Assembly (NCBI GenBank): GCA_012628545.1
Contig: GCA_012628545.1_3035.1
DNA length: 64,000 nucleotides
Reading direction: 5' to 3' (one strand)
From: a phage
Made by a program: the position numbers and the translations under genes. Under the pieces are notes generated by a model. That model made no database searches. It worked only from the letters and a program-made list of their open reading frames with translations, and had not been told where the DNA came from. Below, one piece after another: positions 3,329-56,898 of this stretch (the first letter of the stretch is position 1; each line of letters opens with the position of its first letter).

Positions 3329-3350
3329 TTTGTTTTCCTCATTTGTTTTG

Positions 3351-3388
3351 GTAGAGCTATAATATCACAACTCTACCAAAAAGTAAAC
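3351..3388 (-). promoter_or_regulatory. early promoter, -10 region inside an inverted repeat
   Basis: GTTTAC (rc of 3383..3388); IR ggtagag / ctctacc around ctataatatcacaa. Confidence 0.4.
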
Positions 3389-5284: not shown

Positions 5285-5517
5285 TTATTTTTCTCAACCA
5301 ATGATTGAATATAATCATGCAGGTCTTTAGATGCTTTACCCCACTTATTTTGATATTCATTTTTAAGATTAGCCCGAGATTGAGCTAATAAAACATCATT
5401 AGTTGGAGGTAAAGATTCTAATCGTTGAATCTGACGTCCATAAATCATTGCAGCCATCTCAGATTCATAAATCAATCCTTTGAGATGTTCAAATTGATGC
5501 CATGAAATCATTTGCAT
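5281..5517 (-). CDS. hypothetical protein
   Basis: 78-aa ORF. Confidence 0.5.
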
Positions 5518-6715: not shown

Positions 6716-8303
<1,588 letters not shown>

Positions 8304-8326
8304 AATAAAATGGGCCTTGCGGCCCA
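8304..8326 (-). promoter_or_regulatory. hairpin between nrdB stop and denA start
   Basis: tgggcc-ttgc-ggccca hairpin between a GGAG after the nrdB stop and the denA ATG. Confidence 0.4.
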
Positions 8327-8330
8327 CTCC

Positions 8331-9509
8331 TTAAAAATATTTTTTAAAACTCATCATAACTTTATCATCAACATCATTATCAATCTGTGCAACAAGGTAA
8401 GATGACAGTTCTACTTCTTGCGGCGCGGATTGAACATTATCAGAATTAAGGTATTCACGAATCCAAGGATATGGATGTTTAACCGGAGCATCGGTAATTG
8501 GGCATGGAAGACCGCACTGTTTCATACGAGATACAGTTAAGTAATCAATAAAGCTCCACATGCTATTTGTATTTAATCCAGGAACATCGCCATCTTTAAA
8601 TAAATGAACTGCCCAATCTTTTTCTTGGCGGTTAACTTCCATGAAAATATCAACTGCTTCTTGTTCACACTCTTTGGCAATTTTAACCCATTCATCACCA
8701 TCAGTGCCAAGTTGAAGTTGACGAATAATATATTGTGTACCTTTAAGATGAAGCTGCTCATCACGTGCAATGAACTTCATAATCTTGGCATTACCTTCCA
8801 TGATTTCCATATTCTTGTGGAAGTTAAAGGTACATGCAAAAGATACATAAAAACGAATAGCTTCCAATGCGTTGATTACGTGCAGGCAGAGGTAAAGAGA
8901 GCGCATTAGTTCACGTTTCCAATACATTTCATGCTCTATGGCATCTTCAATAACGTCTTCGTCTGCATTAATTTCTTTTTGGTATTCGATATCAGCTTTA
9001 GCGTTTTCCCAATAACGAGTTTTAATCAGAACATCATCATAATAACGACCAATAGATTCAGCGCGTTTCATAATAGCTTCATCTAATACAATCTCATCAA
9101 ATACCTTTGACGGATCAGTATAAAGATTTCGCATGATATGAGTATATGAACGACTGTGAATAGTTTCACTAAAAGTCCACGTAGCAACCCATGTATCAAG
9201 GCTTGGGTCTGAAATCAATGACATAAGTACAGCAGACGGCGCACGACCCTGAATGCTATCCAAAAGTGATTGATACTTCAGATTATTAGTAAAAATATCT
9301 TGCTGATATTGAGGAAGCTTGTTAAATTGCGCAGCATCCATCATTAAGTTTACTTCTTCAGGGCGCCAGAAAAATGACAACTGCTTTTCGGTTAAATCTT
9401 CAAAAACTTTATGACGTTGAATATCATAACGCGCAATACCAAGACCTGAACCAAAAAACATAGGTTCTTTTAAAACATCAACTGGATTTGTATTAAAAAC
9501 TGTGCTCAT
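8331..9509 (-). CDS. nrdB: ribonucleotide reductase small subunit
   Basis: 392-aa uninterrupted ORF, class Ia R2 family; no intron. Confidence 0.9.
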   Translation of the reverse strand: MSTVFNTNPVDVLKEPMFFGSGLGIARYDIQRHKVFEDLTEKQLSFFWRPEEVNLMMDAAQFNKLPQYQQDIFTNNLKYQSLLDSIQGRAPSAVLMSLISDPSLDTWVATWTFSETIHSRSYTHIMRNLYTDPSKVFDEIVLDEAIMKRAESIGRYYDDVLIKTRYWENAKADIEYQKEINADEDVIEDAIEHEMYWKRELMRSLYLCLHVINALEAIRFYVSFACTFNFHKNMEIMEGNAKIMKFIARDEQLHLKGTQYIIRQLQLGTDGDEWVKIAKECEQEAVDIFMEVNRQEKDWAVHLFKDGDVPGLNTNSMWSFIDYLTVSRMKQCGLPCPITDAPVKHPYPWIREYLNSDNVQSAPQEVELSSYLVAQIDNDVDDKVMMSFKKYF

Positions 9510-9560: not shown

Positions 9561-11825
9561 TCATAATTTACAGGATGAACAATCTTCAGCTTTTGGAGTT
9601 TCTATTTCATAATCATCAGTACCAGAACCATCACGGGTATTATGATAATAGAAATTTTTTCCGCCAAAATACCAAAAATACAAAAGGTCATCAATCATTA
9701 TTGACATTGGAACCTTTCCTTTTGGAAAAATCTGTGGGTCATAATATGTATTCGCCGAAGCTGATTGACAAACCCATTTCAGCATAATAGCTACCTGCGT
9801 AAGATAAGGTTTATTACCTTTCTTAGCTAATTTCCATGTATAATCATAGAGGTCTATGTTATGCTCAATATTGGGCACGACTTGATTAAAGGAGCCCTCT
9901 TTTGATTCTTTAACAGAGACTGGTCCACGTGGAGGCTCGATACCGTTTGTACTGTTAGAAACTTGGGAAGATGACTCACATGGCATAAGTGCTGATAATG
10001 TGCTATTACGGATGCCAAAGAGCTTAAGGTCTTCCCGCAGCGACGACCAGTCACAAACGTATTTTGGAGCTGCGATTTGGTCAATCTTTTTATTGTACCA
10101 GTCGATAGGTAATTCGCCTCGAGACCAACGAGTGTCTGAATAATATTCGCAAGGTCCTTTTTCTTTGGCGAGCTTAATGGATGCTTTAATGAGTCCATAC
10201 TGTAATCTCTCAAATAGTTCATGTGTTAAATCGTTAGCATCTTCATAAGAAGCAAAGTTACTTGCCAGCCAAGCTGCATAGTTAGTAACACCTACACCGA
10301 GGTTACGACGCTTTTTAGCTTTTTCTGCTTCAGGAACTGGATATCCTTGGTAATCCAAAAGATTATCAAGAGCACGAACTTGAACTTCTGCTAATTCATT
10401 AATTTTATCTTGGTCTTGCCAATCGAAGTTATCCAGCACAAATGCAGATAACGTGCACAATCCAATTTCAGCATCGGGGCTATTCACATCATTTGTTGGA
10501 ATAGCAATTTCACAGCACAAGTTACTCTGACGAATAGGTGCCTTTTCACGAATAAATGGAGTATAGTTATTCGTATTATCAATGAACTGTACATAAATCC
10601 TTGCTGTTCCTGAGCGTTCAGTCATGAGCAATTCAAATAGTTCACGGGCTTTAATACGCTTTTTACGAATATTAGGGTCTTTTTCTGCTGCTTCGTATAA
10701 TTCACGGAAACGGTCTTGGTCTTTAAAATAAGAATAATAAAGCTCGCCACCCATTTCATGCGGACTGAACAAAGTAATGTAATCGTTCTTTCCGAATCGT
10801 TCCATCATCAAATCATTCAGCTGAACACCATAATCCATATGACGAATGCGGTTTTCTTCTACGCCTTTGTTATTTTTCAAAACGAGAAGATTTTCAACTT
10901 CCAAATGCCAAATAGGATAATAAGCAGTAGCAGCACCGCCACGAATTCCACCCTGTGAGCATGATTTAACTGCAGTCTGAAAATGTTTCCAAAAAGGAAT
11001 AACACCGGTATGGCGTACTTCACCCATGCCAATCTTAGAACCTTCGGCACGAATCATACCAACGTTAATACCAATTCCAGCGCGTTTAGAGATATATTCA
11101 ACAATTGAAGCGGAAGCCTTATTGATAGACTTCAGCGAATCACCTGCCTCAATAACAACACATGAACTAAACTGTCGAGTCGGAGTACGACAACCAGCCA
11201 TAATAGGAGTTGGCAGTGAAATCTGTCGAGTAGATACTGCTTCATAAAAACGGATAACATGTTTTAATCTATCAACAGGTTCATCTTGATGCAATGCCAT
11301 TCCAATAGTCATAAATGCAAACTGTGGAGTTTCATAAATTTGACCAGTGGTTTTATCTTTAACTAGATATTTTTCTTTTAATTGCATCGCCCCGGAATAA
11401 GTAAATTCCATATCCCGCTCGTGCTTAATTTTTGATTCTAAAAATGTAATTTCTTCTGCTGAATATTTTGACAATAATTCAGGGTCATATTTACCTGCAT
11501 TTACACAATAAGAAATATGGTCAATAAATGAACGCGGTTCATACTGCCCATAAACATGCTTACGAAGAGCAAACATTAAACAACGTGCAGCTACATATTG
11601 GTAATCAGGCTCTTCAACCGAAATAGAATTCGCAGCGGCCTTAATGACAATAGTCTGAATATCATCAGTGGTCATTCCATCACGGAGATATGATTTAATA
11701 TTTTCATATAATTCATAAGGATCTACAGATGTTCCTTCAGCTGCCCAAGATAAAACTTTAATAATTTTTTGCGGGTCAAAGCTCTGAGAAACACCACTAC
11801 TTTTGATAACATTAATTAATTGCAT
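9561..11825 (-). CDS. nrdA: ribonucleotide reductase large subunit
   Basis: 754-aa ORF, class Ia R1 family; T4 NrdA length. Confidence 0.95.
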   Translation of the reverse strand: MQLINVIKSSGVSQSFDPQKIIKVLSWAAEGTSVDPYELYENIKSYLRDGMTTDDIQTIVIKAAANSISVEEPDYQYVAARCLMFALRKHVYGQYEPRSFIDHISYCVNAGKYDPELLSKYSAEEITFLESKIKHERDMEFTYSGAMQLKEKYLVKDKTTGQIYETPQFAFMTIGMALHQDEPVDRLKHVIRFYEAVSTRQISLPTPIMAGCRTPTRQFSSCVVIEAGDSLKSINKASASIVEYISKRAGIGINVGMIRAEGSKIGMGEVRHTGVIPFWKHFQTAVKSCSQGGIRGGAATAYYPIWHLEVENLLVLKNNKGVEENRIRHMDYGVQLNDLMMERFGKNDYITLFSPHEMGGELYYSYFKDQDRFRELYEAAEKDPNIRKKRIKARELFELLMTERSGTARIYVQFIDNTNNYTPFIREKAPIRQSNLCCEIAIPTNDVNSPDAEIGLCTLSAFVLDNFDWQDQDKINELAEVQVRALDNLLDYQGYPVPEAEKAKKRRNLGVGVTNYAAWLASNFASYEDANDLTHELFERLQYGLIKASIKLAKEKGPCEYYSDTRWSRGELPIDWYNKKIDQIAAPKYVCDWSSLREDLKLFGIRNSTLSALMPCESSSQVSNSTNGIEPPRGPVSVKESKEGSFNQVVPNIEHNIDLYDYTWKLAKKGNKPYLTQVAIMLKWVCQSASANTYYDPQIFPKGKVPMSIMIDDLLYFWYFGGKNFYYHNTRDGSGTDDYEIETPKAEDCSSCKL

Positions 11826-15087: not shown

Positions 15088-15132
15088 TTAGTTGATAAGG
15101 CTATAGTATCACTACCATAGCCTGTTGTAAAC
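15088..15132 (-). promoter_or_regulatory. early promoter (conserved family)
   Basis: tagttgata...ctatagtatcac...gtaaac arrangement. Confidence 0.45.
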
Positions 15133-28100: not shown

Positions 28101-28413
28101 AAGCGCTCTTTATGCGGGAAGTAACAACTCTCCTGGTACTGGTTCTATAAGAGGATCCGCCGGTGGTGGTAATACGCTTGGAACTTCTTCTTCTGGGGCA
28201 CATTCGCACTCTATATCTGGTACTGCTGCAAGCGCAGGCGCTCACGCGCATACTGTTGGTATTGGTGCTCATACCCATACTGTAGGTATCGGTGCTCATA
28301 CCCACACGGTAGCAATTGGCTCGCATGGTCATACTATCACTGTAAATAGTACAGGTAATACAGAAAACACGGTTAAAAACATTGCTTTTAACTATATTGT
28401 TCGTTTAGCATAA
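25192..28413 (+). CDS. 37: long tail fibre distal subunit (receptor-binding tip)
   Basis: 1073-aa ORF; His-X-His repeats and conserved C-terminus [11 protein letters not shown] as in T4-type gp37. Confidence 0.9.
27958..28030 (+). repeat. tandem 30-nt coding repeat in gene 37 ([10 protein letters not shown] x2.3)
   Basis: Two full and one partial copies with identical peptide but different serine codon families. Confidence 0.6.
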
Positions 28414-28417
28414 GGAG

Positions 28418-28433
28418 AGGGGCTTCGGCCCCT
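28418..28433 (+). promoter_or_regulatory. hairpin between Shine-Dalgarno and AUG of gene 38
   Basis: AAGGAGAGG then GGGGC-UUCG-GCCCC then UUCUAAAU AUG. Confidence 0.45.
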
Positions 28434-28440
28434 TCTAAAT

Positions 28441-28992
28441 ATGAAAATCTATCATTATTATTTTGACACTAAAGAATTTTACAAAGAAGAAAATTACAAA
28501 CCTGTTAAAGGTCTCGGTCTTCCTGCTCATTCAACAATTAAAAAACCTTTAGAACCTAAAGAAGGATACGCAGTTGTATTTGATGAACGTACTCAAGATT
28601 GGATTTATGAAGAAGACCATCGCGGCAAACGAGCATGGACTTTTAATAAAGAAGAAATTTTTATAAGTGACATTGGAAGCCCGGTTGGTATAACCTTTGA
28701 TGAGCCCGGCGAATTTGATATATGGACTGATGACGGTTGGAAAGAAGACGAAACATATAAACGCGTTTTAATTCGCAATAGAAAAATTGAAGAATTATAC
28801 AAAGAATTTCAAGTTTTAAATAATATGATTGAAGCTTCTGTCGCGAATAAAAAGGAAAAATTCTATTATAAAAACCTTAAGCGATTCTTTGCTCTTTTAG
28901 AAAAGCATGAGCATTTAGGTGGTGAATTTCCCGCATGGCCTGAAAAAGAACGGAAACCTTGGTATAAGCGTTTATTCAAGCATTACGTATAA
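28441..28992 (+). CDS. 38: tail fibre assembly chaperone
   Basis: 183-aa ORF; matches T4-type gp38 by length and sequence recall. Confidence 0.85.
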   Translation: MKIYHYYFDTKEFYKEENYKPVKGLGLPAHSTIKKPLEPKEGYAVVFDERTQDWIYEEDHRGKRAWTFNKEEIFISDIGSPVGITFDEPGEFDIWTDDGWKEDETYKRVLIRNRKIEELYKEFQVLNNMIEASVANKKEKFYYKNLKRFFALLEKHEHLGGEFPAWPEKERKPWYKRLFKHYV

Positions 28993-42183: not shown

Positions 42184-42232
42184 TTATCCTCGTTTGGTTT
42201 CGGGAATATTATACTCCGGTAATCATAAAGCT

Positions 42233-42250
42233 AAAGGCCCGAAGGCCTTT
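42233..42250 (-). promoter_or_regulatory. intercistronic UUCG-loop hairpin
   Basis: aaaggcc-cgaa-ggccttt between ORF 42250..42519 and gene 39. Confidence 0.35.
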
Positions 42251-42519
42251 TATTTAAAACGAATAGTTGAATCCTTAAAGAACAGCCCAGAACATACTGT
42301 TCCTTCTACTTTCTGCCCGGTAGGTCCAATAGCACGAAATCCAGTATGTTGGAAATCATTTTCAGAACAACCGAACCAGTTATATCCAGTGATTTCAATA
42401 TTAGTAAAACCGCTTGAAGATAAAACTTTGGTTGCATTATCAGCATCAGTACATCCTACTAAAGACACTGTTAATACTAATGCTGCAATAGAACGATTAA
42501 TATATTTCATAATTTTCAC
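42250..42519 (-). CDS. putative lipoprotein
   Basis: 89-aa ORF with signal peptide and lipobox LVGCT. Confidence 0.5.
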   Translation of the reverse strand: MKIMKYINRSIAALVLTVSLVGCTDADNATKVLSSSGFTNIEITGYNWFGCSENDFQHTGFRAIGPTGQKVEGTVCSGLFFKDSTIRFK

Positions 42520-49590: not shown

Positions 49591-50193
49591 TTATAGATTA
49601 AATCCTTCAAAATCAAGAGTATAGATAGTGTATGTTGAATACTTTTTATACTCATATCTATCTGCAATTCTAAATACACTTCCAGCTGGTATCATTACTT
49701 CTTGTTCATCTGAAACTAATTCCATATTACGATAGCGATGGCTATCCGGAAACTTAAAGTTTGGATTATATTCTTTGCAGCGTAGAGCTTTTATAGCATA
49801 CTCCTGGAAATTGAATACCATAGGAGCTTTGAATTCAAAAATAACTTGTGTGTTATACTCTAAACCGGAAGCAAAATGTAGAGCTATATTTTTATCATAT
49901 GAAGCTGATACGACTTTATCAAATGTAATAATATCAATTCCTTGATTTAATACTTGCTTAGTCTCAGCTGGAACACCTCTCCAAAGAGGTTTATCGTTTG
50001 GAACCAAACGAGATTTGATTATTTCATTTAACCAAGTATGGTCATCTGGCTTATTAGTAATACAATGAATTAAAAGTTCAATTTCAGATAAATTAAACCC
50101 TTCAGAAAGTAATTCTTCACGAATAGAAGCACGCACCGATGCATCCATTGATTTTATTTTAAAATCTTTTAGTTGCATTATTGAGTATTTCAT
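49591..50193 (-). CDS. modA: ADP-ribosyltransferase ModA
   Basis: 200-aa ORF, paralogous to the adjacent 207-aa ORF; T4 ModA/ModB lengths and order. Confidence 0.75.
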   Translation of the reverse strand: MKYSIMQLKDFKIKSMDASVRASIREELLSEGFNLSEIELLIHCITNKPDDHTWLNEIIKSRLVPNDKPLWRGVPAETKQVLNQGIDIITFDKVVSASYDKNIALHFASGLEYNTQVIFEFKAPMVFNFQEYAIKALRCKEYNPNFKFPDSHRYRNMELVSDEQEVMIPAGSVFRIADRYEYKKYSTYTIYTLDFEGFNL

Positions 50194-50813
50194 TCAACTA
50201 CCTCAATATCATAAACTTTAAATGTTCCAAATGAATCGTGTAATTTTTCTTTTGAAATAGAAGTTATTCTATACTTTCCAATTGGAATCATCCATTCTTG
50301 TTCATGCACAATCATCATTAAGTTATCAGTACGCTCTGAATCTAACCCATCAGTATCTTCATATGTATACTTAAACTCAGTATTAGGAGAAGAAAGTATA
50401 ATATCGCTGATATGGTCAGAGTAATTAAAAGCTTTATCAGTTTTTAAACGAAGTATTGTTTCAGTGAAATATTCAGCATAAGAAAAAGAACACGCTGTAT
50501 GCAAACTAGTAGTAAATGAATCTACCCTGTTCGTTGAAAACACTTCTCCAACTTGCAAATCTTTAATAAGTTCTTTTGTCGATTTTGATATACCACGATA
50601 TAATTGATAAGGCGATTTAGTTAAATGCTTTTTAATGATTTTATTCAACTGTCTGTGAAGAGCTTCATTCTTTTTTGCTTCCATACATTGCCAAAGAACA
50701 GACTGCTCAAAATCAGTAAATTTTTCACAGACCTTTTTATACATATCATATTGAAAATCAACGCTTTCAGCTTTTATAGATAACTGTTCAACATCTGCAG
50801 GATTAATAATCAT
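50190..50813 (-). CDS. modB: ADP-ribosyltransferase ModB
   Basis: 207-aa ORF, paralogue of ModA. Confidence 0.75.
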   Translation of the reverse strand: MIINPADVEQLSIKAESVDFQYDMYKKVCEKFTDFEQSVLWQCMEAKKNEALHRQLNKIIKKHLTKSPYQLYRGISKSTKELIKDLQVGEVFSTNRVDSFTTSLHTACSFSYAEYFTETILRLKTDKAFNYSDHISDIILSSPNTEFKYTYEDTDGLDSERTDNLMMIVHEQEWMIPIGKYRITSISKEKLHDSFGTFKVYDIEVVE

Positions 50814-50880
50814 GATAGCCTCCGTATACTTCAGAAGCTATCATATCATCGTTAGAAAGGAAAGTAAACAACTTTTTGAA

Positions 50881-56840: not shown

Positions 56841-56898
56841 AACAATCTCCTCATTTAACCAACAAGACTACTATACCATAGTCTTGTCAGCTTGTAAA

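Follow-up and report, generated by a model that had tools for sequence, protein, structure and literature searches.

A probable split ribosome-binding site at the nrdB–denA junction of a Tequatrovirus genome, with a hairpin that may double as a leaky terminator

We analysed the junction between nrdB (ribonucleotide reductase small subunit) and denA (endonuclease II, EndoII) in a 64,000-nt stretch of phage DNA (contig GCA_012628545.1_3035.1; hereafter, the window), in which both genes are encoded on the minus strand. Endonuclease II nicks cytosine-containing host DNA, starting host DNA degradation; because the enzyme would be harmful if over-made, its amount and timing are biologically relevant. 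Comparative and structural evidence indicates that the junction is probably a split ribosome-binding site of the type known from T4 gene 38, in which a hairpin lies between the Shine-Dalgarno (SD) sequence and the AUG, and that the same hairpin may also serve as a leaky intrinsic terminator; the split ribosome-binding site appears strongly supported, and the terminator moderately so. The 821 bp comprising denA and the 3′ part of nrdB (7880-8700) are 100% identical to Shigella phage SHBML-50-1 and to other Tequatrovirus genomes, and the window phage is a Tequatrovirus; the same nrdB–denA junction is present in T4 itself.

The precedents are T4 genes 38 and 25, at which a hairpin between SD and AUG was shown to restore a functional distance, shortening it from 22 to 5 nt at gene 38 and from 27 to 11 nt at gene 25, and at which mutations that destabilise the intervening structure lower initiation (PMC3014915). 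denA is not mentioned in this T4 review (PMC3014915). The features of the window on which the argument draws are the following:

8331 to 9509, minus strand: nrdB, an uninterrupted open reading frame (ORF) of 392 aa for the ribonucleotide reductase small subunit (ORF list; 100%-identical records annotate a class Ia beta subunit).
8333 to 8331, minus strand: the UAA stop codon of nrdB (sequence).
8327 to 8333, minus strand: UAAGGAG, the nrdB stop fused to the SD-like GGAG at 8330-8327 (sequence; every distinct junction has a GG-containing purine block 5′ of the stem).
8311 to 8326, minus strand: the hairpin UGGGCC-GCAA-GGCCCA, with 5′ arm 8326-8321, GNRA loop 8320-8317 and 3′ arm 8316-8311 (folds and covariation).
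8304 to 8310, minus strand: UUUUAUU, a single-stranded spacer of 7 nt from the hairpin to the AUG, which would double as the U-tract of a terminator (sequence).
7893 to 8303, minus strand: denA (EndoII), 136 aa, from the AUG at 8303-8301 to the stop codon (ORF; 100%-identical records annotate endonuclease II).
8325 to 8327, minus strand: an in-frame GUG that is the denA start in AF158101 and NC_000866 (144 aa) but is not accepted as such in this analysis (annotation weighed against comparative data).
28411 to 28443, plus strand: the comparator, comprising the gene 37 stop, GGAG, the hairpin AGGGGC-UUCG-GCCCCU, UCUAAAU and the gene 38 AUG (sequence; best non-self match of the covariance model described below).

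The minus strand of the junction reads ...AAAUAUUUU-UAA-GGAG-UGGGCC-GCAA-GGCCCA-UUUUAUU-AUG-AAAGAAAUU, with 8333-8301 running from UAA through AUG. The order of stop, GGAG, hairpin, UUUUAUU, and AUG reported for 8303-8333 in the initial annotation is exact, that span beginning at the U of UAA and ending at the A of AUG. The linear distance from GGAG to AUG is 23 nt at denA. A duplex of UAAGGAGU with the 3′ end of 16S rRNA is predicted at -8.5 kcal/mol, and the UUUUAUU spacer is without SD potential (+2.8 kcal/mol). Among the parsed junctions of relatives, none has an SD-like sequence in the U-rich spacer of 5-10 nt between stem and AUG (anti-SD duplex -0.1 kcal/mol or weaker), and SD potential 5′ of the stem ranges from -1.7 to -8.1 kcal/mol. 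A GG-containing purine block is always located between the stop codon and the stem, adjoining the 5′ side of the stem and often fused with the stop as UAAGGA; its variants include GGAG, GGAU, GGAA, GGAC, AAGGU, and GAGAGG. Once the hairpin is taken out, the SD, counted from its first G, lies 9-13 nt from the AUG in relatives (mode 11), and 11 nt from it both at denA in the window and at gene 38, such that the post-excision spacing appears to be canonical and constrained. The proposal that the hairpin splits the ribosome-binding site of denA is therefore supported, on comparative and computational grounds, by a spacer that lacks an SD, an SD block 5′ of the stem, and a constrained spacing once the hairpin is excised.

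For the 66-nt junction stretch the predicted folding energy is -16.8 kcal/mol (z = -2.82), a stability matched by 3 of 200 shuffles; the core 6-bp stem and GNRA loop contribute -12.2 kcal/mol in context. IMG/VR was scanned twice with DenA, yielding 41 T4-like loci with DenA identity down to ~60%; in all but one of these a GC-rich hairpin, mostly with a UUCG loop, is situated between the nrdB stop and the denA AUG, and it forms part of the minimum free energy fold in every one of the 18 hairpin-bearing loci that were folded in 108-nt context. Covariation was assessed on an alignment of 23 distinct nrdB–denA junctions from relatives, in which 94.9% of stem cells are paired and both-sided (compensatory) changes occur at four of the six stem pairs. 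The covariation score of 0.462 (vs 0.162 for shuffles) was reached by none of 500 shuffles, and falls to 0.02-0.25 when the partner columns are slid. No Rfam family reaches its gathering score at the junction, the top match, L20_leader, scoring 23.4 bits where the gathering score of that family is 58.7. Sampling of the junctions covered at least seven named Tevenvirinae genera individually. Named phages that display the arrangement belong to Tequatrovirus, Mosigvirus, Gelderlandvirus, Winklervirus, Gaprivervirus, and Kanagawavirus, and a Klebsiella phage shows it as well.

We built a covariance model from the 23 denA junctions alone and searched the window and the complete T4 genome with it, all filters being disabled. 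In the window, denA scored 46.3 bits and the gene 37-38 junction came next with 41.2 bits (E 1.3e-5); in T4, denA scored 44.4 bits and gene 38 was the best other match, with 31.2 bits. Another notable T4 match (30.1 bits) is the terminator before gene 39, and the rest are hairpin-only sites. This third match (42260-42221 in the window, minus strand) was rejected as a gene start, as it consists of a terminator, a mini-ORF of five codons, and the gene 39 promoter. The site itself (42221-42260, minus strand; T4 5369-5408, minus strand) has the hairpin AAGGCC-UUCG-GGCCUU after an 89-aa ORF, followed 7 nt on by the mini-ORF AUGAUUACCGGAGUAUAA, which overlaps a TATAAT-like box upstream of gene 39.

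A generic scan of T4 for the ATG of any ORF of at least 40 aa that lacks a canonical SD and has a hairpin of -5 kcal/mol or lower ending 3-12 nt upstream, with an SD abutting the hairpin, returned 10 matches. Seven are internal or antisense ATGs, and the real gene starts are those of genes 38 and 25 and denA, the last of which passes the filter for absence of a canonical SD. Because only these three are real starts, the scan recovers both published positives and exactly one new gene. In a survey of stable hairpins across the window, the order SD, hairpin, AUG occurs only at denA and at the gene 37-38 junction, and the 5′ flanks of bona fide terminators are of the AATT or ATCT type. On the plus strand, the sequence of the gene 37-38 junction is UAA-GGAG-[AGGGGC UUCG GCCCCU]-UCUAAAU-AUG, and the description of the denA start as showing the same SD-hairpin-AUG arrangement holds, since the geometry of the two junctions is identical. 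In some relatives (loci L022-L024 and L028), the denA junction (UAAGGAGAGGGCCUUCGGGCCCUUCUGUUAUGAAA in L022) has nearly the same sequence as the gene 38 junction UAAGGAGAGGGGCUUCGGCCCCUUCUAAAUAUGAAA (window 28411-28446). Every feature of the gene 38/25 class that can be tested in silico thus appears to be present at the denA site.

The junction hairpin also resembles an intrinsic terminator. Its stem has five G-C pairs and a GNRA loop and is followed by UUUUAUUA (6 U in 8), and a terminator is annotated at the homologous position in two GenBank phage records. A simple terminator scanner did not list the hairpin, probably because G-T pairs let the stem extend into the T-run. On the minus strand between 9700 and 8301, no late (TATAAATA), MotA-box (TGCTT), or early (GTTTAC) motif was identified, and a sigma-70-like promoter scan gave 10 matches where 9.1 were expected, which is no evidence for a denA promoter. 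Given that the stem ends only 7 nt before the AUG and that no promoter motif was found in this interval, every translatable full-length denA mRNA would contain the hairpin; termination would then have to be incomplete, because the denA mRNA must run through it. The same two observations support the earlier suggestion that denA depends on read-through from nrdB. The accompanying suggestion that the hairpin terminates nrdB fares less well: a GC-rich stem followed by UUUUAUU makes a leaky nrdB terminator plausible, but this is the weaker half of the reading, the U-tract not being conserved.

In Escherichia coli, when a stop codon precedes a terminator by only a few bp, the translating ribosome represses that terminator almost completely (PMC4824070). 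With a gap of 4 nt between the nrdB stop and the stem, read-through would be expected to rise when translation of nrdB closely follows transcription. An omics supplement places denA RNA in the “middle” class and the RNAs of nrdB and rnlA in the “early” class, a resolution too coarse to address attenuation (PMC9697503). The literature that we reached contains no description of the denA junction and no mapping of transcript 3′ ends, toeprint, reporter fusion, or N-terminal sequence for it, although an earlier mention in Nivinskas 1999 or Malys 2009 is possible.

We infer that in vivo the hairpin folds, that ribosomes use the SD across it, and that termination occurs only in part and responds to ribosomes. 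In this scheme denA, which has no recognisable promoter, would be transcribed only by RNA polymerase reading through from nrdB. The GC-rich tetraloop hairpin together with UUUUAUU would stop some polymerases and give the nrdB mRNA a structured 3′ end. As the stem starts only 4 nt after the nrdB stop, a terminating ribosome should cover its 5′ arm, and a ribosome that finishes nrdB close behind the polymerase would in this way favour read-through. In the read-through RNA, the folded hairpin would loop out 16 nt and bring GGAG from 23 to ~7 nt from the AUG, whereupon a 30S subunit would start at AUG 8303. If this reading is true, denA would be the third T4 case, after genes 38 and 25, of a ribosome-binding site that needs a hairpin to fold; it would also be the first such site in a prereplicative gene, and the first whose hairpin resembles a transcription terminator. 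The junction would then offer a natural system in which termination, ribosome–polymerase coupling, and initiation share one RNA element.

Several observations weigh against this reading. The T4-type GGAG can wobble-pair with UUUU, the extended stem being predicted at -16.4 kcal/mol compared with -12.2 kcal/mol for the core, and in 106-nt context the four SD bases are predicted to be unpaired with a probability of only 0.04-0.37; with its SD bases mostly paired in the extended stem, the hairpin could hinder use of the SD rather than help it. In the same context, the AUG region (8308-8300) is predicted to pair with the nrdB codons UUAUGAUGA (8359-8351), through A-U and G-U pairs only. Among relatives, the 8 nt that follow the stem contain between 2 and 6 U, and two loci (L032 and L033, with GUAAAGCU or AUAAAGCU) keep the hairpin without a U-tract, which argues that termination is not the conserved function.

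Certain lineages, moreover, do without the arrangement, namely locus L027, the Karamvirus CkP1, the Krischvirus MIZ4, and Aeromonas phages. L027 (IMGVR_UViG_2974786931_000001, ~1490-1503) has no junction hairpin, and its nrdB stop overlaps the denA start as TTATGA (…AAAUACUUAUGAAAACC); it is a natural deletion variant dependent on direct coupling. The Aeromonas phages Aes508 and Aeh1 likewise have an overlapping stop/start of the ATGA type at denA. In Citrobacter phage CkP1 (L059, 100-165) the order is hairpin, GAGG, 6 nt, ATG, with the ATG 6 nt upstream of the conserved one, and in Escherichia phage MIZ4 (L048, 640-700), in which denA does not follow nrdB, it is hairpin, GAGGAAAGGA, 3 nt (UAA), ATG. 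As CkP1 and MIZ4 carry a canonical SD after the hairpin, the denA junction exists in both orders of the elements. Five more distant denA-like loci (L042-L046) were set aside as not T4-like. These lie on IMG/VR contigs of 37-152 kb (at ~1460-1560) and encode DenA-like sequences of 40-42% identity with in-frame TAG codons in the match region, and may represent phages with stop-codon reassignment.

Among the alternatives, termination–reinitiation survives best. Here the hairpin would be only a terminator or a stabiliser of the 3′ end, and GGAG would tether the post-termination 30S subunit or 70S ribosome, which would then move 27 nt to the AUG, the folded hairpin being unneeded or tolerated. Such a route accords with the fusion of the stop to the SD (UAAGGAG) in nearly all relatives, and with the stop/start overlaps of the hairpin-less lineages (L027, Aes508, and Aeh1), which show a tendency of denA to be coupled with the cistron before it; in addition, a ribosome positioned on the stop codon must, judging from its known footprint, open the stem by melting its 5′ arm. 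Translational coupling through a stop that overlaps the start is a feature of L027 and the Aeromonas phages only; here the gap is 27 nt. Reinitiation leaves unexplained why the post-excision spacing has a canonical value equal to that of gene 38 and why L032 and L033 retain the hairpin without a U-tract, and it is at odds with the lowered initiation from destabilised structures at the gene 38 and 25 sites (PMC3014915). We consider it rather unlikely as the explanation of the junction, and at the same time a serious rival to the split ribosome-binding site or a partner mechanism of it.

A more far-reaching reading, which we regard as speculative and improbable, takes the stop-SD-hairpin-AUG unit to be a portable kinetic gate of Tevenvirinae. 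At the hairpin the polymerase would either terminate or read through, the ribosome terminating on nrdB would melt it and thereby suppress termination, and once refolded it would give a 30S subunit, or that same ribosome by hand-over, access to the AUG, such that EndoII would be made only from transcripts on which nrdB is actively translated; the near-identity of the L022-type and gene 38 junctions would then reflect a shared or transferred cassette and not convergence. If this were true, nuclease output would be tied to ribonucleotide reductase output.

We judge it very unlikely that the structure is present chiefly to sequester the SD, with the extended helix and the pairing of the AUG to nrdB keeping translation of a toxic nuclease low until ribosomes translating nrdB open them. 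The extended stem is indeed 4.2 kcal/mol more stable than the core, and the SD bases and AUG are predicted to be unpaired at 4-37% and 1%, respectively, in the 106-nt context. The extension, however, consists only of G-U and A-U pairs without compensatory change, and the 70.7% of its cells that are pairable are what a purine run facing a U run gives anyway; further, the SD–16S duplex (-8.5 kcal/mol) outcompetes the wobble extension, and pairing of the AUG is not conserved, its unpaired probability ranging from 0.01 to 0.68 across relatives. Both structures were accordingly rejected as conserved elements: the helix between SD and U-tract is pairable but lacks covariation, and the pairing of the AUG with nrdB codons is predicted in the T4 type only and is not kept in relatives.

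There is scarcely more to be said for cleavage of the intergenic GGAG by T4 RegB, which early in infection would separate denA from its SD and strip the nrdB mRNA of its 3′ hairpin, and to which we assign marginally less weight still. In early transcripts, RegB cleaves GGAG/U between genes, mostly at SD sequences, and at the denA junction the fourth-position G lies at the base of the stem. Strong RegB sites match GGAGRAYARAA and are A-rich on their 3′ side, and folded RNA is protected from cleavage (PMC3014915); the 3′ context here, UGGGCCGCAAG, is a GC-rich stem and departs from that consensus, and efficient cutting by RegB is unlikely. Given that the relatives carry GGAG, GGAU, GGAA, GGAC, GGUA, GGUG, or GGCG, it is not a RegB motif that is conserved.

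The split ribosome-binding site presupposes that denA starts at the AUG. AF158101 and NC_000866 (T4 position 137951) instead start denA at GTG within GGA-GUG, giving 144 aa, whereas in UniProt END2_BPT4 and many phage records the protein begins at the AUG and has 136 aa; contigs on record with the exact T4 DenA sequence number 92 for the 144-aa form and 214 for the 136-aa form (~30% carrying the 144-aa form). The EndoII chain of PDB 2WSH, the crystallised protein, consists of a His tag and then MKEIATEY... The AUG is invariant across the junction alignment, and an in-frame upstream start is present in only four of 24 distinct junctions. The gap between the nrdB stop and the AUG varies from 23 to 32 nt among junctions and is not a multiple of three in 9 of 25, and the intervening bases (the eight extra codons of the longer form) evolve as a stem with compensatory changes and not as protein. 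The GUG, finally, overlaps the sole SD and the base of the stem, and has no SD upstream of it. On these comparisons the denA start is very likely AUG 8303. The initial annotation had named a different denA start as an observation that would count against the arrangement; curated T4 records do use one, but the comparative data reject it. That the GUG at 8327-8325 is nonetheless the start, with the hairpin as coding sequence, has on this evidence almost no likelihood, its annotation in the two T4 records and the 92 contigs notwithstanding. The start codon of denA in the T4 reference needs correcting, the GTG being unsupported by comparative data, and gene callers or ribosome-binding-site models that are limited to a short linear SD-AUG spacing will mis-start such genes.

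Other structured sites were observed in the window. Upstream of a 207-aa ORF (50190-50813), which its position and length identify as modB, lies a 14-bp hairpin UAUGAUAGCUUCUGAAGUAUACGGAGGCUAUCAUG at 50811-50845 (minus strand; -17.7 kcal/mol) whose 3′ arm includes both GGAGG and the start AUG of this ORF; it looks like a start site sequestered by structure, a logic opposite to that proposed for denA. At 3346-3381, 15098-15123, and 56857-56892 (all minus strand), long A/T-rich inverted repeats with stems of 11-16 bp (-15 to -19 kcal/mol) start directly after GTTTAC, with an SD and a start codon downstream; these look like T4 early promoters with a palindromic spacer and initial transcript.

Compared with known systems, the denA junction is most like that of gene 38. 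In the window, both have GGAG, 23 nt, and AUG, with a 16-nt hairpin and a 7-nt spacer, and both have UAA fused to GGAG, a GC-rich 6-bp tetraloop stem, an A/U-rich spacer, and AUGAAA; in T4 itself, the distance from GGAG to AUG at gene 38 is 22 nt, matching the published value (PMC3014915), versus 23 nt in the window. The loops differ, being UUCG at gene 38 and GCAA at denA here, although the denA junctions of relatives use UUCG. Whereas the spacer of denA is U-rich, that of gene 38 (UCUAAAU) does not form a U-tract; hence the gene 38 hairpin is unlike a terminator, and the denA hairpin is terminator-like. Gene 38 is also a late gene and denA a prereplicative one, and the mechanism has experimental support at gene 38, whereas at denA it is inferred computationally.

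The gene 25 site, recovered by the same generic scan, has an SD (GAGG) 27 nt from the AUG that its hairpin brings to 11 nt, and the arrangement is kept in close T-even phages and lost in distant ones (PMC3014915). It differs from denA in having an A/U-rich hairpin (CUCAAAGA-GUUC-UCUUUGAG) that lies within the coding sequence of gene 26 and is without terminator features, and in that the gene 26 stop overlaps the gene 25 AUG (UAAUG). Four junctions of the window (34325, 36737, 36971, and 37934, all minus strand) have the order stop, hairpin, SD, AUG; as at denA, the stop precedes a hairpin with a UUCG or GNRA loop that lies immediately ahead of the next gene, but their SD (GAGGAAA, AAGGAAA) comes after the hairpin at normal spacing, the reverse of the order at denA.

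For the terminator, the nearest comparison is that of T4 mobE in the nrdA-mobE-nrdB region, which stops 30-50% of transcripts and thereby tunes expression of a nuclease gene (PMC2790892). The window differs from T4 in this region: nrdA ends at 9561 and nrdB starts at 9509 (minus strand), without mobE, nrdB.1, or the nrdB intron with I-TevIII. Like the denA hairpin, the mobE terminator is a GC-rich tetraloop stem followed by U residues inside a polycistronic unit; it differs in lying within the coding region, 27 nt after the AUG, and in having no part in the geometry of SD and AUG.

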